A stretch of DNA of 57,186 nt, taken from positions 1 to 57,186 of IMG/VR virus record IMGVR_UViG_3300012201_000004, one strand, 5' to 3'. Under the pieces are notes generated by a model. That model was not told where the DNA came from and ran no database searches. It worked only from the letters and a program-made list of their open reading frames with translations. The translations under genes were made by a program, and so were the position numbers. Within the stretch, counting starts at the first letter, position 1. Each line of letters opens with the position of its first letter. The stretch is from a virus (taxonomy: Duplodnaviria; Caudoviricetes). Positions 1 through 11,877 of the stretch are shown here, in pieces.

Positions 1-149
1 GAGACACTAGCAGTAGAACACAAGGCACGTTCGCACGGAGCGAGATAGCAGCGTAAGAGTCTTTCTTGATTGAGAGACGCGCATTCATCCCACCTCACGG
101 TCGGATTGCTTCTCATCGCACGCTCAGGTAAGACGGGCAAGCCTTTCTC

Positions 150-301
150 ACGGTACCGTAGGGCATACGGGAACCGACACGGTTGCCCGTGTACAACGCT
201 TCTGGACATGCGGGCCTCTACTTTCTGGATAGCACTATTCAGTGAGCAAGTCTCATGGATGAAGGAAGAATTCCCCTGCTTTTTAAGCGGGGAAATGTCA
301 A
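150..301 (+). mobile_element. IS200/IS605 (or IS607) tnpB 3'-end remnant with right-end RNA (reRNA/omegaRNA) scaffold, no TnpB ORF
   Basis: Encodes degenerate TnpB C-terminal words GTVGHTGT, NASG and QVSWMKEEFPCF, and ends in the hairpin CCCCTGCT-TTTTA-AGCGGGG followed by AAATGTCAA, typical of a right end. No RuvC or Zn-finger coding sequence lies upstream. Confidence 0.7.
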
Positions 302-396
302 TATACCTCCTGGTATAAAATGACATTCCCCTTCAGGCTACAACGAAGTGAGGCGTGATAGGTAATAGTGAGGTACATGTGTGCTACACGCAACGC

Positions 397-435
397 ATAA
401 TGAGGGGATAGTCGTTTTGACTATCCCCTCATTAT
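397..435. terminator. Perfect 17-bp inverted repeat, likely terminator
   Basis: ATAATGAGGGGATAGTC-GTTTT-GACTATCCCCTCATTAT. Confidence 0.6.
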
Positions 436-876
436 TCTCTATCTATGCTAAGACGTGAATAAGACTTGTTTTGCGCATGGATAGTTGGTGTCCCGTTCTC
501 TGAAACTTAGACATTTAGGACAGGCCCAAATGATGTTCAGTTCCTGCATCAACGATCAGAGTTCCACTCAAAGACTGCTCTCTGAGCCAGCGCTCCAATC
601 TCAGTCAGGCGTAAATTCCGGTCGAACTGACCGTACTGACGAATGGAACTTGGTTATCATCCCATCCATAGACCTATTCTCTCACACCGTGTCAAAAGCG
701 GAGATGGGAGAGAAGTCCAGAAAAAGGAACGGATATCCCTGTTTTCAGAAACTAGTTGCTACCCCCTGAGAAGGAGCGCCGTCAAAGCGCGCTACGTGTA
801 AACTTTCTCATGTCTACTGAGACGAGCCAGCACACCAGAGGTAATACTGAGGACATCTAGGCTATGCGGGGAGTGC

Positions 877-927
877 GGACAAGAGGAGAGGCTCGGAGCA
901 ATCCACTCCGAGCCTCTCCTCTTGTCC
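877..927 (-). terminator. 22-bp perfect hairpin just downstream of the leftward operon
   Basis: GGACAAGAGGAGAGGCTCGGAG-N7-CTCCGAGCCTCTCCTCTTGTCC, 10 nt after the stop of 938..1204. Confidence 0.65.
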
Positions 928-937
928 ATGTGGCTAC

Positions 938-1204
938 TTACACGCAACGTAGCCACTCTCGATACTGCTCTACATACTCAGCTATGGCAAGCGCCTCACC
1001 AGAGCCGTACCAGATATCATCGATGACAATACCACGTCTTCCATCTGCTTCTGCTATGCAGATGGTCAAATCGCTGATCGAAGTGAGAGGCTGAGGTCTG
1101 CTTCTGGCCTCAAAGCCGATGTACGGTTTCTTCGTGATGACATAGCGCCGTGGCGGACCAGCGCCCTGGCGAGTGCCGCCGCTATGCCCTTTTGTCCCAC
1201 TCAC
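938..1204 (-). CDS. Small putative DNA-binding protein with N-terminal GGxRxGAG (AT-hook-like) arm
   Basis: MSGTKGHSGGTRQGAGPPRR; start overlaps the stop of the upstream gene. Confidence 0.6.
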   Translation of the reverse strand: MSGTKGHSGGTRQGAGPPRRYVITKKPYIGFEARSRPQPLTSISDLTICIAEADGRRGIVIDDIWYGSGEALAIAEYVEQYREWLRCV

Positions 1205-1443
1205 TTGGCACTCTCTCCATAGACATATTCCACGTCACCATCCTGGTTGTGTACCAAATGCACGGGCGGGAAACTTGCAAGCTTCTGTTGGTACTCTTCA
1301 TAGGTACAACCGCGCCGTGCATTCGCCTCTTGCTTTGCGCGCGCTGCATGCTCTGGATAGTTCGCTGCCAATGCATCCATTTCACTGTCATCGCCCCACA
1401 TTATGATGCTCATTTCTTGCTCTTTGTATTCTTCGTAGGTCAT
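1201..1443 (-). CDS. Hypothetical protein with internal TYEEYxxQ/K repeat
   Basis: SD GAGAGGA, directly downstream of a consensus promoter. Confidence 0.7.
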   Translation of the reverse strand: MTYEEYKEQEMSIIMWGDDSEMDALAANYPEHAARAKQEANARRGCTYEEYQQKLASFPPVHLVHNQDGDVEYVYGESAK

Positions 1444-1472
1444 GATCGTTATCCTCTCTTCATTGTTTTATC

Positions 1473-1511
1473 TCGCATTTGAATAATACAACAATCAAAT
1501 GCGAATGTCAA
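1473..1511 (-). promoter_or_regulatory. sigma70 promoter with inverted-repeat operator
   Basis: TTGACA-17-TATTAT on the minus strand; TCGCATTTGA-N12-TCAAATGCGA straddles the -10. Confidence 0.75.
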
Positions 1512-1523
1512 TCCTTTTCCCTA

Positions 1524-1745
1524 TCAGTTTTCGAGACGAGGGAAAATTCGTGCTATACTTCCTCTGGCGACACGGACACTTCCTGACACTAGACAATGCC
1601 ATACATCTTTTCGGGCGTTATGCCGTGATGGACGCACATTGGCGTATCCCACAAAAGATGATATCTTCCCGACCTGCTCCCGTTGCTCGTACATCTTCCG
1701 TACAAGCTCCTGCACCTCGGGATGGTTCTCTGGCAAGTAGTTCAT
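1524..1745 (-). CDS. Hypothetical protein
   Basis: ORF in the leftward early region; weak SD, and an antisense TGCTATACT promoter overlaps it. Confidence 0.35.
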   Translation of the reverse strand: MNYLPENHPEVQELVRKMYEQREQVGKISSFVGYANVRPSRHNARKDVWHCLVSGSVRVARGSIARIFPRLEN

Positions 1746-1927
1746 AAAACTACTACAACTGCTGTATAGGATGCTTTGGGCAGTAGCAGTAAAAGCAATT
1801 CTTCACTAAATGCTGCCGATCTGGCGGTACCTGTTCTAATGGGACAATCTGGCGTCTTTTCATTCCTGTGATCTATCCCCTTGCGCTCCATCTTCCCTTG
1901 CCACGGCGGGGTTGATCAATCGGCTTG

Positions 1928-2146
1928 TCAGGTGCATCGGCAAAGCCGTTTGCGAGGGGCGTCGCTATTCTGTTGTGCAAGAGCGGGTGGAGCGCAAGGA
2001 AACAACGCAGCAAGGAGCGCCGCGTCCTGGTCCGCCTGGTGCTGTTGTCGCCAGTAGGCTTGTCTATGCGCGTCGTTACAATATTCCCGTTGGCGATGCC
2101 CGCCCGGTTTCTCTTCCACTGGCTGGCCACAAAACTTACAATTCAT
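1928..2146 (-). CDS. Zn-finger DNA-binding protein (CxxC...YCxxxH), C-terminus possibly frameshifted
   Basis: MNCKFCGQPVEEKPGGHRQREYCNDAHRQAYWRQ; SD GAGAGGG; upstream TTGTAA-17-TACGAT promoter with TGT(A/C)ACGCTT direct repeats. Confidence 0.6.
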   Translation of the reverse strand: MNCKFCGQPVEEKPGGHRQREYCNDAHRQAYWRQQHQADQDAALLAALFPCAPPALAQQNSDAPRKRLCRCT

Positions 2147-2256
2147 TGCTTGCTTCCCTCTCTTCAATCGTTTGTAACGCTTCAATCGTATCATGGTTGT
2201 GTCACGCTTACAAGGCAAAGAAAAGAGCGCCACTCCGAAGAGTGACGCCCGTCCTT

Positions 2257-2517
2257 CTACCAATTGGCCGGATCGCCTTTTTCAGCGCCCTTTGCCATTT
2301 CTTCATATTCCTTGAATAGCTGGTTTTTGCGCTCCTGCTCTCGTTGGGCAATGGCAGCATTCCAGCCTCTCAAGAAGTCTGCGCGCCGCTCGCCCGTGTA
2401 GAGGCCGACGCGCACGGACTCTTGCTCTGCTGTCGTCTCATGCCACCAGTCCCAGGACCGCGCTGCTATAGAGCCTGCGAGGTAGGGATCGGTGCGCGCC
2501 AGTGCGTTGTCGGTCAT
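2257..2517 (-). CDS. Hypothetical phage protein
   Basis: Coupled ATGA overlap with the upstream ORF; contains FLRGWNAA motif. Confidence 0.65.
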   Translation of the reverse strand: MTDNALARTDPYLAGSIAARSWDWWHETTAEQESVRVGLYTGERRADFLRGWNAAIAQREQERKNQLFKEYEEMAKGAEKGDPANW

Positions 2518-3005
2518 GGCCTGCGCTCCCCCTTGACCAGGCCGACCTCATAGAGTGAGGTGTAGAACTCTATGAGGCTCTTGCTGTACGGCCCACGCCA
2601 GAATAACTCAACGGCGTCAATGATGGCCTGAGACTGCACTTCTGTGAGCGCGTCGATGCGTGCCAGGAATGCCGCCTGGTCTACATCGTAGCCGTGAACC
2701 ATTGCACCTGCTATATTGCCGTGCAGCGTGCCAGGAGTGCAGCGTACGCCGTTGAGCGCGTCACACAAGAGGAGCGCTTCAGCTTCTGTGAACTCTGGTA
2801 TGTCGTCGTCGTCGTACAGCGGTACTTTTTGCGGCCATGACGGAGCCGATTCAGGATGCATCAGCGCGACCAGATCGCCTCGGCGGTGATCGATCCAATC
2901 ACCGAGCAGGAGCGCGTCCTCTGGCGAGAGGGAGATGGTGTGTCCATGCATGTCCGTAATCTCGAACGTGTCGCCTTCTGTGGTAGTGATGTGTTCTAGT
3001 TTCAT
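2514..3005 (-). CDS. Hypothetical phage protein
   Basis: Strong SD GGAAAGGAAG, 163 aa, FTEAEALLLCDALNG motif. Confidence 0.7.
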   Translation of the reverse strand: MKLEHITTTEGDTFEITDMHGHTISLSPEDALLLGDWIDHRRGDLVALMHPESAPSWPQKVPLYDDDDIPEFTEAEALLLCDALNGVRCTPGTLHGNIAGAMVHGYDVDQAAFLARIDALTEVQSQAIIDAVELFWRGPYSKSLIEFYTSLYEVGLVKGERRP

Positions 3006-3033
3006 TTGCTTCCTTTCCTTTCCTGCCTTGGCG

Positions 3034-3240
3034 CTACTGTCTCTTGAGCGATTCGCATAGCGCTACGAAATCTTCATAGCTCATCTCTGGCAAGACTTCC
3101 ATCTCAAATGTCTCACCCGTTTCATCGTCAGTCAATGACTGGCCATCTAGCGTTTCCTTAATCTCCTGATGAAATCTCTGCATTTGTTCTTGGCGTTCGT
3201 TGTCCTGATTGTTGCCGAAAAGTTTGCTGAATAGGCCCAT
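3034..3240 (-). CDS. Hypothetical protein (MGLFSKLFG amphipathic start)
   Basis: SD GAAAGGAAG before the ATG at 3240. Confidence 0.65.
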   Translation of the reverse strand: MGLFSKLFGNNQDNERQEQMQRFHQEIKETLDGQSLTDDETGETFEMEVLPEMSYEDFVALCESLKRQ

Positions 3241-3344
3241 TGTTTGCTTCCTTTCTTGAATGGCGTATAGGAGCGCTCCTAACGTTCCTATACGCGTTAC
3301 ACTACTGCATGATAAGATAGTTTTCCTGATACCATCCCGATACA

Positions 3345-3542
3345 CTAACGTGCGGTATCTGCCTCAGTCTCATCGTTTGGAACAAAGCGCCTGACATACG
3401 ACGACACCGCGTCGAACTGATCTATCGCGTGTGTCAGCACGAGCTGCTGTAAGTGTTCAGGAAGTGCGTTGATACGCTGTTGCTCGTAGAGATCGTCAAG
3501 GGTTGTGTCGTCGGTCATCTGCTCAGGAGGCGTAATCTTCAT
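3345..3542 (-). CDS. Hypothetical protein
   Basis: SD GGAGG, overlaps the upstream stop. Confidence 0.6.
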   Translation of the reverse strand: MKITPPEQMTDDTTLDDLYEQQRINALPEHLQQLVLTHAIDQFDAVSSYVRRFVPNDETEADTAR

Positions 3543-3733
3543 AGCGTCCTCCCATGATAGATGTTATCCGCATCGTTGGCGGACACCAGCCCCTCCTGGT
3601 AGAATGCGCCCAACAGCGCGATCTCGTCGGCGTCTTCCTTGTCGCTACAATTCGGGTCCGTGCAAAACCTGTGCTCGCTGTGGTTGTCAGGGTTACGCGG
3701 GTCGGTGGCGCTCTCGTATTCTGGAACGATCAT
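3539..3733 (-). CDS. Small acidic Cys/His protein
   Basis: SD AAGGAG; HxxxHxxCxxxxC. Confidence 0.6.
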   Translation of the reverse strand: MIVPEYESATDPRNPDNHSEHRFCTDPNCSDKEDADEIALLGAFYQEGLVSANDADNIYHGRTL

Positions 3734-3802
3734 ATGCTATACTCCTTGTTATGCAAAGCCTACTTCGTGGGAACTTGGGAGGCTTTGCCGCTTAGCTATG
3801 GC

Positions 3803-3890
3803 GGTCGGTATTTCCAGTACCGACCGTTTATCGTTTCCTCCACAATCTAGGAGGCGTCTACCAGCCAGCAATGAACCGACTGGCACCCGT
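3803..3890 (-). repeat. Copy A of duplicated multi-hairpin leader RNA motif
   Basis: Minus strand CCTCC-TAGATTGT-GGAGG, A-rich linker, GGTCGGTA-CTGGAAA-TACCGACC; matches 4118-4200. Confidence 0.65.
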
Positions 3891-3902
3891 CTACTAACTG
3901 CA

Positions 3903-4088
3903 CTACTCTTCGTCAGGCTGGACCTGAGCCACTTTGACCAACTTCGCCAACGTCTGATCAGTCCAGCCTATGTACTGACGACTGAACTCTTCAGCCGCCT
4001 CTTTCTTGGAAGTCGCTTCCACTGGATAGGTCACTTCTTTGTCAGTGCCCTGTGCGAACGTGACTTCGTACTGTTTCTGCGTTGCCAT
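3903..4088 (-). CDS. Small hypothetical protein (VEATSKKEA motif)
   Basis: SD AAAGGAG; common small phage protein pattern. Confidence 0.7.
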   Translation of the reverse strand: MATQKQYEVTFAQGTDKEVTYPVEATSKKEAAEEFSRQYIGWTDQTLAKLVKVAQVQPDEE

Positions 4089-4117
4089 GATGTTGCTCCT
4101 TTGTGTTTGTGTGAGTT

Positions 4118-4200
4118 GGTCGGTATTTCAGCACCGGCCTTTTCTTTTGCCTCTCACAATCCGAGAGGCACTGACGTACCGACGTGAGCCGATACACCAG
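4118..4200 (-). repeat. Copy B of duplicated multi-hairpin leader RNA motif
   Basis: Minus strand GCCTCTC-GGATTGT-GAGAGGC, A-rich linker, GGCCGGTG-CTGAAA-TACCGACC. Confidence 0.65.
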
Positions 4201-4203
4201 GGT

Positions 4204-5037
4204 CTATCGACTGTCGCGCTGTACCGATTCTCTATAGATGCGTGCAAAATGCGCATCTGATGTTTCCAAATCTAAGAGAAAACGTGGAAAGCGGTCACCC
4301 TCCTGCTTTGGTTGCTCAATAAACCCCAATGCCCGACACAACTTTTTCCCATCATCCTCATCTGACACCGCATAGAGCCGTCGAATAACAATGTGTCGCT
4401 CTGCCAATTCTCCGAGGAAATCAATAAAACCAGATATGAGACGAAATCCGAAGCGTCGGGTGTGCTTCTCCACATCGGGTCTTACAGCGATGCCGATGTA
4501 CAAATCGTAGGCTCTCCCTGGCTTGTATGCTAAGTAGTCCTGTGGCGTCATATCCCACGAACGCCGTTTGCCGCTCATGATATCTTCTAATGCATCAGGC
4601 TTGAACGGAGCTGCATGGATGTAGCCAGCGATTTCACCATGAAACAGTACCACGTAGTCTAGATAGGGGTTGACGACGTACCATTCTCGTCTCTGCTCTG
4701 GCGTCGTCGTTTGCCATCCTAGCACGGCAAGAACATGTACAATGCCCTCAGCATCTTCAGGTAAAGCTGTGCGTGTCTCTGTCTCTGGCTCCTCTACTGT
4801 AGTCGTATGCAGATACAAAGCCATCTCATTAGCCAATCGATCTATTTCCCTTCTTTCATAATAACCTTCTACTTTCAGAGGCGGCACATATTTCTTGATT
4901 CGACCTTGCCGCACAAGGTAGCTGAAAGCAGAGGGTGTCATTCCTAGTCGCTCACGTGCCTGCTTGGCCGTGTAGTATCCTTGTGGCGCACGTTTCGGTC
5001 CCCCACCGGTCTTTTTTCTCTTCGGTTTTTCTGACAT
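4204..5037 (-). CDS. HTH (MerR/excisionase-like) plus GNAT-fold protein, candidate regulator or repressor
   Basis: YYTAKQARERLGMTPSAFSYLVRQGRI HTH; C-terminal GNAT pattern LYIGIAVRPD...FGFRLI...GKKLCRALGF. Confidence 0.75.
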   Translation of the reverse strand: MSEKPKRKKTGGGPKRAPQGYYTAKQARERLGMTPSAFSYLVRQGRIKKYVPPLKVEGYYERREIDRLANEMALYLHTTTVEEPETETRTALPEDAEGIVHVLAVLGWQTTTPEQRREWYVVNPYLDYVVLFHGEIAGYIHAAPFKPDALEDIMSGKRRSWDMTPQDYLAYKPGRAYDLYIGIAVRPDVEKHTRRFGFRLISGFIDFLGELAERHIVIRRLYAVSDEDDGKKLCRALGFIEQPKQEGDRFPRFLLDLETSDAHFARIYRESVQRDSR

Positions 5038-5046
5038 CTAACCCCC

Positions 5047-5116
5047 TTGACAGCGTGTGAAACCTGTGATATGTTTGACACATAAGAAATGTAACATACC
5101 GAATGGAGGATGTCAA
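5047..5116. promoter_or_regulatory. Face-to-face sigma70 promoter pair (switch region)
   Basis: Rightward TTGACA(5047)-17-TATGTT with TG extension; leftward TTGACA(5116)-17-TACATT. Confidence 0.7.
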
Positions 5117-5555
5117 GTCAGGTACCCCCGCTTAAAAAGCAGGGGGCTTGTAAGTAGGGCCGACTTCTAGCCGTCTCTTGCAAGCCCTGGACCTGACCAG
5201 ACTTAGTTTGCACGTACAGCCTGGAACAATCAGTCTGGTGCAAGCTACCTTACCGGCGAAATAGGTACGTCAGAATACGAGGCCAGTTCTGACCTCTACG
5301 GCATATGGTTAAACAGAGAAACGGGGTCTACTCAGTGCTGTATGCGTTAAACCGTCGGATAAGTTTGTCGAGGCCACCTTTACTTTGTGCGGAAAAGGGC
5401 TGGTTGAGCCATATTCTCAACCAGAGAAAGAGCACCGCACATGCTTCTTTCTCCCCCGTAAGGGGATGGTATTGGCACAAGGCGCGCGCAGCAGAGTGTG
5501 CGCCTTGCATTCCTCCCCTGGCTGAAGCCGTAGGGCTTCCTGAAAGGAAAATCCT
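5117..5555 (+). mobile_element. Non-autonomous IS200/IS605 element carrying a standalone IscB-type omegaRNA (HEARO)
   Basis: GTCAGGTACCCCCG..GGGGGCTTG start, ACCAGACT, ATAGGTACGTCAGAATAC..CCAGTTCTGACCTCTAC, TTAAACAG, TTGTCGAGGCCACCTTTAC, far end CATTCCTCCCCTGGCTGAAGCC..GGGCTTCC; no IscB ORF. Confidence 0.8.
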
Positions 5556-5810
5556 GTGATCGATGCCTATAGGAGAGGCTATCAATCTGGCAGTGAAGCA
5601 TCACACAAAGATCCTCAACTGCGCCTCTTGTCTGAGGAGGCAGTGAGTGATATTGCTCACCGCGTCTTTGCTGGCATGATGAAGCAAGGCTTTGCACACA
5701 TTGAACCAAAGTCGGACTTTATCGTGGGTTTCGTAGAAGGCGTTCAGATATCTTTCCTCCATCAAAATTTCTGTAGCGCGTCAGTAGTATCAAGACGGCT
5801 AACCATGTAG
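5556..5810 (+). CDS. Hypothetical protein
   Basis: GTG start immediately after the element end; AYRRGY and FIVGFVEG motifs. Confidence 0.55.
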   Translation: MIDAYRRGYQSGSEASHKDPQLRLLSEEAVSDIAHRVFAGMMKQGFAHIEPKSDFIVGFVEGVQISFLHQNFCSASVVSRRLTM

Positions 5811-5853
5811 TGAGCATGATTAGCCCTACCAACCAGAAAGGACATAACCCCTT

Positions 5854-6219
5854 ATGGCAAGCATTACCACTATACAACCAGCCACTGCGCCACTAGAGCG
5901 CGAGCAACCAAACACCCTAGAGAACGTTTGTCCCACCGAGGAGAGCGCCGCTCGCTTGTTCGCCATCGTACACGGACTCTGGCCGGTGACGCTCGCCTCC
6001 ATTCGTACCCTGATCGCGCTAGAGGATCAGGCCATACGCACACAACAGGCGAGCGCGCGCAGGGAGCGAGATGCGTCGATACGAGCGCTGGATCATGGGA
6101 CGCGTGGCGCGTGCGCGAAGATGTGTGGATCGGACTATTGCGACACATTCGGGTGCATGCTCGATCAGTCTCCACCGCTAGAGGGTGATCGTACTCCGTC
6201 GGGAGGAGGTACGCAGTGA
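5854..6219 (+). CDS. Hypothetical protein with C-terminal Cys cluster
   Basis: SD GAAAGGA; CAKMCGSDYCDTFGC. Confidence 0.6.
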   Translation: MASITTIQPATAPLEREQPNTLENVCPTEESAARLFAIVHGLWPVTLASIRTLIALEDQAIRTQQASARRERDASIRALDHGTRGACAKMCGSDYCDTFGCMLDQSPPLEGDRTPSGGGTQ

Positions 6220-6668
6220 GTACTACCGCGCCGCTTGATCGTCCTGATCGCTTTCATAGCTACACGCTAGAGGTGCTCCCGCCCGACTCACGTTTGTGGA
6301 TTGATCGTCAAACGCAAGTGGTCATCCTCATCGACGGGGATGGCCGGATCGTGAACCTGGAAATCCTGACGGGTTCTGAATGGTTGCTCATGATTACGCT
6401 GCTAGCAGAGATCCCGCCATTCTGTACGTACGAGAAGCTCTACGCGTCCTTCTTTGGCATGGATTTTGAGCAGTCGCAAGAGCAACTACACGACGCGTGG
6501 GGTTCACCCGCGTGGGATCTCATGATGAAACCGATCCGCAATATCCTCTCAAGGTTGCGTATCAAGATGCGCTCGTTTGGCTTCGAGATCTCAAATATTA
6601 GCGAGATCGGTTATACCTTCGTTCGTGCTGGACGGCGGTATATGACGAACGCGGAGGGGGAGTCATGA
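6216..6668 (+). CDS. OmpR/PhoB-type winged-helix DNA-binding domain protein
   Basis: LTGSEWLLMITL...IRNILSRLRIKM...ISNISEIGY; SD GGAGGAGG. Confidence 0.7.
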   Translation: MSTTAPLDRPDRFHSYTLEVLPPDSRLWIDRQTQVVILIDGDGRIVNLEILTGSEWLLMITLLAEIPPFCTYEKLYASFFGMDFEQSQEQLHDAWGSPAWDLMMKPIRNILSRLRIKMRSFGFEISNISEIGYTFVRAGRRYMTNAEGES

Positions 6669-6952
6669 TCATTCTCAATCCCGCCCTCTATCAAACGTGC
6701 CAGGTGGCCTTCTTCGTGTGCGGTGGTATGGCGTTGTCGATTGCGCTGTATCTGTTCGTTGAGTGGTGGAATGCGTTCACAGCGCATCCACCCGTTCGTG
6801 CCACTGTCCCCGTAGCGATGGGTCCGTATATCGTGAGTCGTGGCCGCCGTACGAGACGGCGCGACTATTTGACGGCTGGACGATTGCAGTGTGACTTGCA
6901 TAGGATGCGCATACTGCAACGTCAACTCAGCCTGCGAGGGATAGTGGCATGA
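6665..6952 (+). CDS. Small membrane protein with basic tail
   Basis: One TM segment, Arg-rich C-terminus, translationally coupled. Confidence 0.55.
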   Translation: MIILNPALYQTCQVAFFVCGGMALSIALYLFVEWWNAFTAHPPVRATVPVAMGPYIVSRGRRTRRRDYLTAGRLQCDLHRMRILQRQLSLRGIVA

Positions 6953-8532
6953 AGAACGACACAAAAGCGGCCATCTTCGCCGCGCTCACCATCATCGGTG
7001 GCGTCGCGGTTGCCATGCTCAGCTTTTTCTACGGACGCTACATTCTCTACGGGCTTGGTGTGATCCTTGCCATTCTGCTAGTCAAGCTCGTAGTAGTGCC
7101 AATGCATGACATCCGCGCACAGACGGCGCTCCAACGGGCGGAGGCCAAGAAGATACGCGCTGAGGCCAAACGAATACACAGAGAGACGCGCATTTTGAGC
7201 GAGTTGCATGATCAGAATATGGAGAGCTTTCCATCAGTCTTCTTCCACAAGCCTGATACGAATGGCAATTTTGCGCTCCCGATCGGTCGTGATGGCCGTC
7301 TCGTTACGCACCTCTTGCCTGGGAATACGGCGACTGGCAATGGTGGCATCCCACCGAAGATGGTGCTGGACTATCTCCAACAGCAGAATACGGTGGAGGG
7401 GGAAATCTGGGAAGAAGACGAAGAAGAGGAGCAGCAGCAGATTGCCCGCCCGAAGATCCTGCTGTCTCAGCAGATTGAGCAGGGTCTCACATCCTGGGGG
7501 GAAGAGGAAAGTGTCTTTGGCTACCCGATCGATACCTATGAGCCGTTCTGTGTACCGCTCTTCAAGAAAGAGGGCAATTTCATCGATAGCCTGATGGTCA
7601 TTGGTATGCAGGGACAAGGGAAAAGCACAATAGGAACCTACTTTGCCGGGTTGACGGTCAATCATGGCGGTCACTTGCTCCTGATTGATCCTGACGCGCA
7701 AGAGGATCAGAGTTTGAGCAATCGCCTGGGTCCGCTCAAATCGTTCTTACTCATGGAGGTTGCCGATACTCCTGAGAAAGCGGAGCGCCTTTTGAGGTTG
7801 GCAGAAGACGAGATCGATACGCCGTCAGACTTTCCTCTGTTGCTCTTGGTCGATGAGTTCTCCATGATCATGCGGCACAAGCAACTCAAAGGCAAGTGGC
7901 AAGAAGTCGCTGATATGGTGGCAAATACCGTTGAGAACTATGCGACTCGCGGAAGAAAGCGTCGTCGTCGCGCTATCGTGTTTGGGCAAATTAGCAATGC
8001 CACACGGACAGGTGGAACGGAGCTGCGTGATAGTTGCGCCTATATCATTTTCAATACGCCACTGAGGAAAGCGGCGCTGGTCCTGCAAGACGCCAGCGAC
8101 GAGGACATAGAGACGTTAGCTCCTTCATTAACACCAGGAATGGCGATTGTCTCACCTGCGAAGAGTAGCGATACGTACATCATGCAGTTCACCTTCCCCG
8201 ATGATCAGGGATTGCAGATCATTGCAGAAGTACGTAGTGAGAGCGATGAACTTGAGGGTTCAAGTCACGTTCAAGATACGTTCACTGATGGGCTTAGTAC
8301 CGACACGGTTCACGAACGTTCAGAACTGTTGAACGTTGATGAACTGGCTCTACAGGCCGACGTTCGCAAAGTGCGCAATCTCTATGGGAAACAGAACCAG
8401 GACGAAATAATCTATATGCTGTGGGGTGCTCGTAAGGGTGGCACGAAACGGTATCAAGAAGCACGTACGCGCTATCAAGCTATAGCGATGTTTATTGAGA
8501 CGGGACAATGGCCGGATGTGAGGCAGGCATAG
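6949..8532 (+). CDS. Membrane-anchored FtsK/HerA-superfamily ATPase (TraB-like DNA translocase)
   Basis: 2 N-terminal TMs, Walker A GMQGQGKS, LLLIDP, Walker B LLLVDE, RGRKR and GQ motifs, C-terminal helical domain. Confidence 0.75.
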   Translation: MKNDTKAAIFAALTIIGGVAVAMLSFFYGRYILYGLGVILAILLVKLVVVPMHDIRAQTALQRAEAKKIRAEAKRIHRETRILSELHDQNMESFPSVFFHKPDTNGNFALPIGRDGRLVTHLLPGNTATGNGGIPPKMVLDYLQQQNTVEGEIWEEDEEEEQQQIARPKILLSQQIEQGLTSWGEEESVFGYPIDTYEPFCVPLFKKEGNFIDSLMVIGMQGQGKSTIGTYFAGLTVNHGGHLLLIDPDAQEDQSLSNRLGPLKSFLLMEVADTPEKAERLLRLAEDEIDTPSDFPLLLLVDEFSMIMRHKQLKGKWQEVADMVANTVENYATRGRKRRRRAIVFGQISNATRTGGTELRDSCAYIIFNTPLRKAALVLQDASDEDIETLAPSLTPGMAIVSPAKSSDTYIMQFTFPDDQGLQIIAEVRSESDELEGSSHVQDTFTDGLSTDTVHERSELLNVDELALQADVRKVRNLYGKQNQDEIIYMLWGARKGGTKRYQEARTRYQAIAMFIETGQWPDVRQA

Positions 8533-8991
8533 ATGGAAGATTTACCGATGAAGCCGCAACCCGTGCCGCAGACCCAAACGCATGCTCCTCAGAAGCAGCG
8601 CGTCCCTAAGCATCTCGAGCGGTATGAGCGGCAATTCGGCGTGACACACGTTCCTCAACTGAGCACCGCGAAACGGCGGCTCAATCAGCAGGGACAGCCG
8701 CGCACAGGTGAGGGCCAATACGCCAACAAACCGGAGAGCAAGTGGAGGCAGGCCATGAGCGGGCAGCAACCCATAGCGCCTACATCTCTGAAACGGCAAA
8801 AGACGCCCGCTCGTCCTGGGACAACACGGCAACCGTTACTGCGCCTTGCTGCAAAGAAGCGAGCAAGACCGCTCCCGTCAATGGAGGCGATGATGGACAG
8901 GCCATTGCATCACAAGGTGGGATATGTGGTCAGGCGATGGTTCAGGCGCAAGAAGCAACATTTGAGAGCATTGTTTTCACTGAGAGGGTAA
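8533..8991 (+). CDS. Basic, low-complexity hypothetical protein
   Basis: Abuts the ATPase stop; Q/P/R/K-rich. Confidence 0.5.
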   Translation: MEDLPMKPQPVPQTQTHAPQKQRVPKHLERYERQFGVTHVPQLSTAKRRLNQQGQPRTGEGQYANKPESKWRQAMSGQQPIAPTSLKRQKTPARPGTTRQPLLRLAAKKRARPLPSMEAMMDRPLHHKVGYVVRRWFRRKKQHLRALFSLRG

Positions 8992-9009
8992 CGAGAGAGA
9001 GGAAAACGT

Positions 9010-11754: not shown

Positions 11755-11757
11755 CAC

Positions 11758-11825
11758 GCCTGTTTCGCGTAACGGGAGCGCGCCCCATTGAGGTGGGGAA
11801 GAACGGTTCGATTCCGTAGCAGGTA
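11758..11825 (+). tRNA. Degenerate tRNA-like element (6-nt anticodon loop, 4-bp T stem)
   Basis: Acceptor GCCTGTT/AGCAGGT, D arm GCGT-AACGGGA-GCGC, CCCCA-TTGAGG-TGGGG, ACGG-TTCGATT-CCGT. Confidence 0.6.
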
Positions 11826-11877
11826 CACCTTCAACAATTGAATACTGAACTGCGTGACAGAACTGTTTAAAAGTAAC

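Follow-up and report, generated by a model that had tools for sequence, protein, structure and literature searches.

The question raised by the left end of this soil phage genome is what the multi-hairpin motif is that stands twice between the first genes of its leftward early block, and what it does there. The stretch analysed, hereafter the window, is the whole of IMG/VR virus record IMGVR_UViG_3300012201_000004, a linear sequence of 57,186 nucleotides (nt) with a completeness estimate of 48%. A sequence-only reading had described the motif as a duplicated, covarying RNA structure in the leaders of early leftward genes and had offered put- or nut-like antitermination, processing or protein binding as its function. 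We find that the conserved thing is an RNA element of the mRNA strand, approximately 65–80 nt long, which is tied to the stop codon of the preceding gene. Its members belong to the early operons of Ktedonobacteria (Chloroflexota) phages and prophages. Among the functions considered, RNase III-type processing combined with message stabilisation is the one we favour, tentatively and by analogy.

Read on the minus strand, the two intergenic copies contain all the features that had been listed for them. Each consists, in order, of a long stem (H0), a hairpin (H1) with GAUUGU in its loop, an A-rich linker and a second hairpin (hairpin 2, H2). The H1 stems differ as described: copy A has GCCUCUC/GAGAGGC and copy B has CCUCC/GGAGG, while GAUUGU is present in both loops. 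The upstream stem H0 is likewise common to both copies, with 13 base pairs (bp) in A and 11 bp in B. Hairpin 2 is GGCCGGUG-CUGAAA-UACCGACC in copy A and GGUCGGUA-CUGGAAA-UACCGACC in copy B, and the two have an exact 12-mer in common. The identical 52-nt core length is reproduced by the original way of counting but depends on the chosen start of the stem. The element also reaches 5' beyond the region first described: the first helix strand of copy A lies at 4214–4207, inside the last codons of a gene for a 277-residue helix-turn-helix (HTH) protein. The features of the two copies are given below; columns refer to A7, a MAFFT alignment of the four full family members that was made from sequence only and not fitted to structure.

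4207–4214, minus strand: copy A 5' box ACAGUCGA, which pairs with 4164–4156 and forms the 5' side of lower stem P1a; A7 columns 8–15
4202–4206, minus strand: copy A UAGAC, invariant in all four members, whose UAG terminates the HTH gene
4171–4200, minus strand: copy A upper stem H0, 13 bp with four G.U pairs
4148–4170, minus strand: copy A H1, 8–9 bp, loop GGAUUGU; its 5' arm and loop (4164–4156) pair alternatively with the box
4118–4147, minus strand: copy A A-rich linker and hairpin 2; viewed on the plus strand, a hairpin followed by TTTTCTTTT
3903–3905, minus strand: stop codon UAG of the 61-residue open reading frame (ORF), 12 nt ahead of and in frame with the copy B UAGAC
3889–3901, minus strand: copy B 5' box GCAGUUAG and UAGAC; A7 columns 8–20
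3859–3885, minus strand: copy B upper stem H0, 11 bp with four G.U pairs
3837–3854, minus strand: copy B H1, 5 bp, loop UAGAUUGU
3801–3836, minus strand: copy B A-rich linker and hairpin 2 (9 bp); viewed on the plus strand, a hairpin followed by TTTATCGTTT

Relatives of the element were found in other genomes. A covariance model built from copy A alone (R1) retrieved copy B when run over both strands of the window without filters (29.8 bits, E = 1.4e-5; next best match 13 bits, E = 0.15). The 61-residue protein encoded between the two copies has six homologs (68–84% identity), and an alignment of these led to one viral locus, L068, where positions 3172–3248 form a full member (R1, 24 bits, E = 3.8e-5) directly behind the stop codon of the homologous gene. 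There, the first 17 nt behind the stop codon agree with copy B at 16 positions, the lower part of H0 differs in sequence with its pairing kept, and H1 reads CCUCUC-AAUUGU-GAGAGG; hairpin 2 is missing, and the ribosome-binding site of the next gene comes right after H1. In the genome collection, the HTH protein has one homologous locus, in a metagenome-assembled genome (MAG) of Ktedonobacterales. A model of three sequences (R2; copy A, copy B and L068), run over 151 genomes of the class of this MAG, gave a strong match in G110 (L189:1498–1580, 49.3 bits, E = 2.7e-9 per genome). The L189 contig belongs to a Ktedonobacteraceae MAG (name from the pattern scan), and its element starts at the stop codon of a 60-residue ORF that is 51% identical to the 65-residue protein of the window, whose own gene carries no such element. 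A partial member (L190 in G150; R2, 24.4 bits) has an H0 close to that of copy B with an unrelated hairpin behind it, and sits after the stop codon of an unrelated 51-residue ORF. Between this partial element and the next gene (L190, 1470–1515, minus strand), a direct repeat of approximately 15 nt, GGYGUCUAGAGAACA, is present in two copies. Further copies are most likely present on the contigs of the six closest homologs of the 61-residue protein (P0058–P0063). Covariance searches of phage and Chloroflexota genomes, which had been proposed as a check, did find further homologs, with covariation.

The position of the element is set by the gene in front of it. All five copies lie on the coding strand directly behind a stop codon, and the upstream genes differ: the HTH gene (copy A), the 61-residue gene (copy B and L068), the homolog of the 65-residue gene (L189) and the unrelated 51-residue ORF (L190). 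The UAG of UAGAC is itself the gene stop in copy A; in copy B, L068 and L189, the gene ends at a UAG 12 nt earlier and in frame. The spacing to the upstream stop is thus fixed at 0 or 12 nt, whereas the distance to the next start codon ranges from approximately 25 nt (L068) to approximately 150 nt (L189). Because this spacing is fixed on the mRNA strand, the element counts as a feature of the 3' end of the preceding gene and not, as had been supposed, as a leader of the following one.

The A7 alignment resolves the element into three parts: a 5' box, CAGU-NNN-UAGAC; the upper stem H0 (11–16 bp), which is free in sequence apart from conserved G.U pairs; and a segment, GCCUCYN-AUUG. The blocks CAGU, UAGAC, GCCUC and AUUG are invariant among freely varying stems, as are two G.U pairs in all four full members. 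The GCCUCYN-AUUG segment can pair in two ways, either with the box, giving a long hairpin, or with the GAGAGG-type arm that follows it, giving H1. When H0, H1 and the pairing of the box with the H1 loop were scored together, 95% of the cells were paired and ten pairs had changed on both sides (including eight of the 13 in H0), against 39–45% and at most three such pairs in slid controls; of 500 shuffles, none reached this structure on four of five measures and one did so on the remaining measure. The extended hairpin has 8 bp between the box and the sequence made up of the last part of the H1 5' arm and the loop, and in it UAGAC pairs loosely with GCCUC. Here, 96.9% of the cells are paired and 11 pairs have changed on both sides (eight in H0 and three in the lower stem), compared with 31–43% paired cells in slid controls, and none of 500 shuffles reached it. 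For copy A, the box helix P1a has covariation at three of its eight pairs. GAUUGU, which had been read as a conserved loop, is probably not a free loop and pairs with the conserved upstream box. In copy B, the change of UC to CU within GCCUCY is accompanied by changes in both partners, GA to AG in the box and GAGAGG to GGAGG in the 3' arm of H1. The extended form is a single irregular hairpin with 22–25 predicted pairs in each of the four members (lower stem 7–8, middle 3–4, upper stem 11–15), and its lower and upper stems are separated by unpaired columns 16/61, 19/58 and 21/56 and by a bulge at column 64. Predicted energies for the two-hairpin and long-hairpin forms are −32.6 and −23.9 kcal/mol in copy A, −25.5 and −22.4 kcal/mol in copy B, and −23.2 and −31.9 kcal/mol in L189, the long hairpin being the minimum-energy fold in the last. 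The two folds are in the same range of energy, and with four members in the family this is suggestive, though short of proof, of a two-state element.

Several observations argue against chance similarity and place the structure on the RNA of the leftward strand. Copies A and B have diverged at 17 of 30 positions in H0 and at 15 of 23 in H1. When copy A was mutated at random to the observed divergence in 5000 trials, a stability like that of copy B was kept in 0.12% of trials for H0 and 0.4–0.9% for H1. H0 is 7–9 kcal/mol more stable on the mRNA strand in the window (minus versus plus, −14.4 versus −4.9 kcal/mol in copy A and −15.7 versus −8.0 kcal/mol in copy B) and contains three or four G.U pairs in every member; H1 is strand-neutral in folding energy. 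All elements fold better than their own shuffles (z = −2.9 to −4.7). Contigs from four DNA sequencing runs that cover 3300–5400 show no differences in 3734–3902 or 4089–4214, so natural variants contribute nothing here. Selection on RNA structure, which had been proposed from the two copies, is borne out by the two additional members in other genomes and by the covariation counts.

What such an element does is suggested by systems of similar shape and position. RNase III recognises shape more than sequence, and the early polycistronic mRNA of phage T7 carries RNase III sites R0.3, R0.5, R1, R1.1 and R1.3. RNase III substrates comprise approximately two helical turns, internal loops or bulges limit the cut to one strand and leave a protective 3' hairpin, and the rules on excluded base pairs (proximal and distal boxes) were defined for the Escherichia coli enzyme (PMC1540722). 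The extended hairpin is predicted to contain a helix of this length in all four members, with internal loops and a bulge between its lower and upper stems, and every copy is intercistronic and on the sense strand, two of them in the leftward operon of the window. RNase III genes (TIGR02191, above cut-off) are present in all four tested genomes of the L189/L190 class, including G110 and G150; the host of the window phage is inferred. Like the T7 sites, the element lies between genes of a phage early operon in more than one copy, is an irregular hairpin of approximately two turns with a loose middle between lower and upper stems, and its copies share shape and some sequence. Unlike them, it contains H1 as an internal alternative hairpin, its UAGAC and some of its G.U pairs are invariant, its anchor at the stop codon is fixed, and its host belongs to a Chloroflexota lineage; the likeness concerns predicted shape and position. 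We favour the RNase III-type reading because the long form has the features of a substrate, the early setting resembles that of T7 and the host class has RNase III genes. Under this proposal, the long form would be cut by the double-strand-specific endonuclease RNase III of the host, as at the intercistronic sites of T7. The upstream message would be left ending in a protective hairpin, and the downstream piece could take up the H1 fold at the 5' end created by the cut. In this view, hairpin 2 with its linker is a separate accessory specific to the window phage, perhaps acting on the opposite strand. Among the functions first offered, a processing site fits the anatomy best. For a put- or nut-like role, no defining feature was found beyond the two-hairpin shape and the early-operon position.

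A number of points weigh against processing by RNase III. The two-hairpin form is the predicted minimum in three of the four members and the long form in only one, and in copy A the former is better by approximately 8 kcal/mol. Support for the lower stem consists of three covarying pairs in four sequences, two of which represent one adjacent swap in copy B, and the three middle pairs are invariant and uninformative either way. The family is very small, with four full members in three genomes, and the sequencing runs listed with DNA of the window include no RNA runs. Moreover, the invariant, single-strand-like UAGAC and the conservation of G.U pairs hint at a partner whose recognition is more specific than that of RNase III.

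A further group of functions is one that we consider rather unlikely as a whole: a true two-state device, in which the long hairpin is cut and the product refolds to place H1 as a 5' cap; an antiterminator that binds RNA polymerase; or a small self-cleaving RNA of a new class. If any of these were true, the invariant UAGAC and G.U pairs would be a functional core rather than a passive helix, and the element would be the first of its kind described for Chloroflexota phages.

The main rival to RNase III-type processing is processive antitermination as in phage HK022, in which the nascent two-hairpin form would bind RNA polymerase and carry it through downstream terminators; we judge it unlikely. 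The put RNA of HK022 binds the zinc-binding domain of the beta-prime subunit of RNA polymerase and suppresses termination. The nut site of phage lambda, composed of boxA and the boxB hairpin, is read by N and Nus factors. Like nut, the present element places a conserved box ahead of a hairpin and, in L068 for instance, stands behind the opening gene of an early operon; unlike nut, its hairpins are much longer than boxB and its box pairs with downstream sequence, and no N-like protein was found among the eight leftward ORFs by Pfam and PHROGs searches. The put sites are approximately 70 nt long with two stem-loops and occur once per operon just downstream of PL and PR and ahead of terminators, putR lying approximately 270 nt from the PR start (PMC9378689). 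The box, H0 and H1 in the two-hairpin form (approximately 60–75 nt) resemble put in size and outline, with two adjacent stem-loops on an early transcript on which put acts in cis, and as for putL and putR, two related copies in one phage differ in their stems with pairing kept (PMC9378689). That the two-hairpin form is the predicted minimum in most members also agrees with this reading, but the pairing of the box with the H1 arm and loop has covariation support as well. The L068 element is placed much as put is, approximately 230 nt downstream of a promoter-like site (TTGACT-17-TATACT) and right behind the first gene; in the window, the two copies are 315 nt apart in one operon, which is not expected for put, and lie approximately 860 and 1180 nt from the leftward promoter-like site at 5116–5088. 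A terminator for an antiterminator to overcome is available in the window, where a strong sense-strand hairpin with a T-run lies downstream at 2250–2225 with ORFs beyond it, but the 3 kb downstream of the L068 element hold no strong sense-strand terminator. Unlike put, both window copies are tied to stop codons, of unrelated genes, rather than to promoters, and no sequence likeness links the element to put or to any Rfam family.

Somewhat less likely again is a two-state regulatory RNA or an operator bound by a protein, which would control the decay or translation of neighbouring genes. The invariant blocks amid freely varying stems, the two invariant G.U pairs, the complementarity of GCCUCY to both partners in spite of its change in copy B, and the closeness in energy of the two folds in copy B and L189 would all suit such a device. 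Against it, the following start codon stands at a variable distance, the structure masks no ribosome-binding site, no recognisable RNA-binding protein is found among the eight leftward ORFs searched, and four sequences are too few to prove bistability.

An element acting at the DNA level, with GTCGGTA as operator half-sites for the HTH protein or with a small mobile or recombination boundary sequence at gene ends, is very improbable: although four of the 12 GTCGGTA heptamers of the window fall within 380 bp here, copy B has a perfect palindrome (8-N7-8) as its hairpin 2, and the element stands beside unrelated genes in different genomes with in-frame UAG codons, GTCGGTA occurs at chance level near 38 other HTH-homolog loci (16 in approximately 126 kb) and is absent from the divergent promoter-like region, H0 forms only through G.U pairs, which points to RNA, and no terminal repeats or pairs of filled and empty sites were found. 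Two further readings were discarded: the box resembles a tRNA D-arm, but ARAGORN and Rfam find nothing there, and stop-codon read-through meets a second in-frame UAG four codons later in copy B, L068 and L189.

RNase III-type processing, the reading we prefer, concerns only the conserved part of the motif. Hairpin 2 and the A-rich linker, which had been counted as part of it, are absent from L068 and replaced by a different hairpin in L189, and on the plus strand they look like terminators. That the motif comprises two things was first indicated by the opposite strand preferences of H0 and hairpin 2: hairpin 2 is more stable on the plus than on the minus strand in both copies (−10.0 versus −6.4 kcal/mol in A and −15.8 versus −14.0 kcal/mol in B), and a C.A mismatch of copy A on the mRNA strand is a U.G pair on the plus strand. 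A consensus scan of the plus strand reads GGTCGGTA..CACCGGCC then TTTTCTTTT in copy A and CGGTCGGTA..TACCGACCG then TTTATCGTTT in copy B, so that both are predicted as a G+C-rich hairpin with an immediate T-run. It is possible, and we propose it with reserve, that this unit is an intrinsic terminator for plus-strand transcripts such as short antisense RNAs. The only weak Rfam matches in E-value mode over 3700–4260 agree with this, all three being plus-strand matches to small RNAs and covering hairpin 2 and the T-run of copy A (E = 1.5–9.3). The plus strand at 3750–3840, which combines hairpin 2 of copy B with a further hairpin, H3, folds with z = −3.4. The L189 hairpin, too, has an antisense T-run behind the element, with TTGACA-17-TAGAGT approximately 60 nt upstream on the same strand. 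However, the 12 terminator-like sites in 1–9000 are no clear excess over shuffles (7.1 ± 3.4), hairpin 2 of copy A has no convincing promoter ahead of it on the plus strand, the T-run of copy B is interrupted, and the stem and loop of hairpin 2 are near-identical between the copies, an identity that a plain terminator does not need.

Candidate antisense transcripts or antisense-oriented terminator-like sites were seen at three places. In the window, 3735–3840 on the plus strand may encode a short antisense RNA, with an extended −10-like sequence TGCTATACT, H3, and then hairpin 2 with its T-run. In L189 (1585–1710, minus strand), the TTGACA-17-TAGAGT sequence is followed approximately 60 nt on by an 11-pair hairpin and a T-run, giving a candidate antisense small RNA of approximately 90 nt that faces the gap between the RNA element and a gene for a sigma-70-region-2 protein. 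In L068, two genes beyond the element, positions 3763–3799 form a hairpin of 16 pairs that has a T-rich tail when read antisense; it adds a further terminator-like site of antisense orientation to the early operons of this phage group.

Most other searches gave no new members. Neither R1, R2 nor pattern searches found a third copy anywhere in the window, a distant search with 3300–5400 against the phage collection gave no match, and queries with the 277- and 163-residue proteins found no relative in viral contigs. At the 38 loci of HTH homologs (L004–L041; L003 is the same phage as the window), R1 had no match at E ≤ 10, the downstream regions differ, and no hairpin of at least five pairs around GATTGT was found downstream of the homologs. 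R1 and R2 had no match on the related virus records G001 and G002 or on MAG G003. The eight weak R1 matches in the 151 class genomes (E = 0.03–0.8 per genome) were all treated as chance; among the six whose alignments were viewed, L047 and L043 lie inside ORFs, and L045 is the gene of L047 by sequence. The exact hairpin-2 pattern matched once in viral contigs, inside ORFs of an unrelated low-G+C contig, and 18 times in genome contigs from unrelated phyla, approximately the number estimated by hand for chance. At loci with this pattern, eight of nine R1 matches cover hairpin 2 only, and the ninth is full-length and weak (16.2 bits, E = 0.057). The 15-mer after the stop codon occurs at at least 119 loci; among the matches listed, only the L068 record is real, and the others are coding or chance. 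A strict pattern from the box to H1 found the L068 record and the L189 contig only, and a loose pattern over 169 class genomes gave mostly noise, with all 30 loci fetched rejected by R2. L191 and L192 were dropped as lying inside ORFs or being poorly paired. One of the 169 class genomes has a homolog of the 61-residue gene (L193 in G168), with unrelated hairpins at both gene ends. R3, run over 18 more class genomes and 150 more genomes of the phylum sample, found nothing new, with 30–150 candidates scored per genome, so that weak members may be missed. The motif had not been recognised as a known family, and in agreement no Rfam 15 family reaches its gathering threshold there, the sole match in the whole window being HEARO at 5117–5383.

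The large ORFs of the window are almost all on the plus strand, and the exception is the leftward block at 1–5037, ahead of which divergent promoter-like sites lie at 5047–5116. The neighbouring features are as follows.

4204–5037, minus strand: 277-residue HTH gene, the first gene of the leftward block
3903–4088, minus strand: 61-residue ORF, between copy A and copy B
3539–3733, minus strand: 64-residue ORF, downstream of copy B
3753–3788, strand of action unassigned: hairpin H3, a 9-bp inverted repeat between copy B and the ribosome-binding site of the 64-residue ORF

The small ORFs downstream of the HTH gene encode 61, 64, 65, 103, 163 and 86 residues. Since the 61- and 64-residue proteins show no likeness by eye, the duplicated RNA motif does not look like a by-product of gene duplication. 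In Pfam and PHROGs searches with the eight leftward ORFs, the sole match was a weak HTH_17 or excisionase-like one in the 277-residue protein, whose N-terminus is basic and whose HTH_17-like motif is accompanied by approximately 200 C-terminal residues without a family. This protein has 54 relatives (40–79% identity) in soil metagenomes and Ktedonobacteria, and the genes downstream of its homologs vary between loci. Judging from the relatives, we infer that the hosts are Ktedonobacteria. Farther along the block, the canonical terminator-like hairpin at 2250–2225 on the minus strand has 11 pairs followed by TTTTCTTT; its place within the block is a natural spot for regulated read-through.

Two other RNA features were noted in the window. 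The HEARO RNA (RF02033) at 5117–5383 on the plus strand is full-length (118 bits against a cut-off of 83) and lies in the divergent promoter-like region. No IscB-sized ORF stands behind it; the next plus-strand ORFs encode 84, 84, 121 and 150 residues and have no Pfam match. In soil sequencing runs, this stretch is approximately 10–30 times as deep as the sequence on either side; many variants occur in it and loose ends are seen at 5116, a pattern that suits the border of a mobile element present in multiple copies. One odd tRNA-like gene is reported by ARAGORN at 11757–11826 on the plus strand, with a two-letter anticodon (ga) and no identity called.

As a sequence family the element is new, but its kind is familiar: structured signals between the genes of phage early operons. 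For annotation, the motif seen by eye consists of two separable parts, of which the conserved one is to be assigned to the end of the preceding gene. How phages of Ktedonobacteria and other Chloroflexota express their genes is almost unstudied, and a small RNA family supported by covariation gives a handle on the punctuation of their early messages. It carries a testable prediction, namely, that RNase III cuts the element and that the product then refolds to form a 5' cap. Should RNA polymerase be the target instead, antitermination by RNA alone would extend to a distant phylum.

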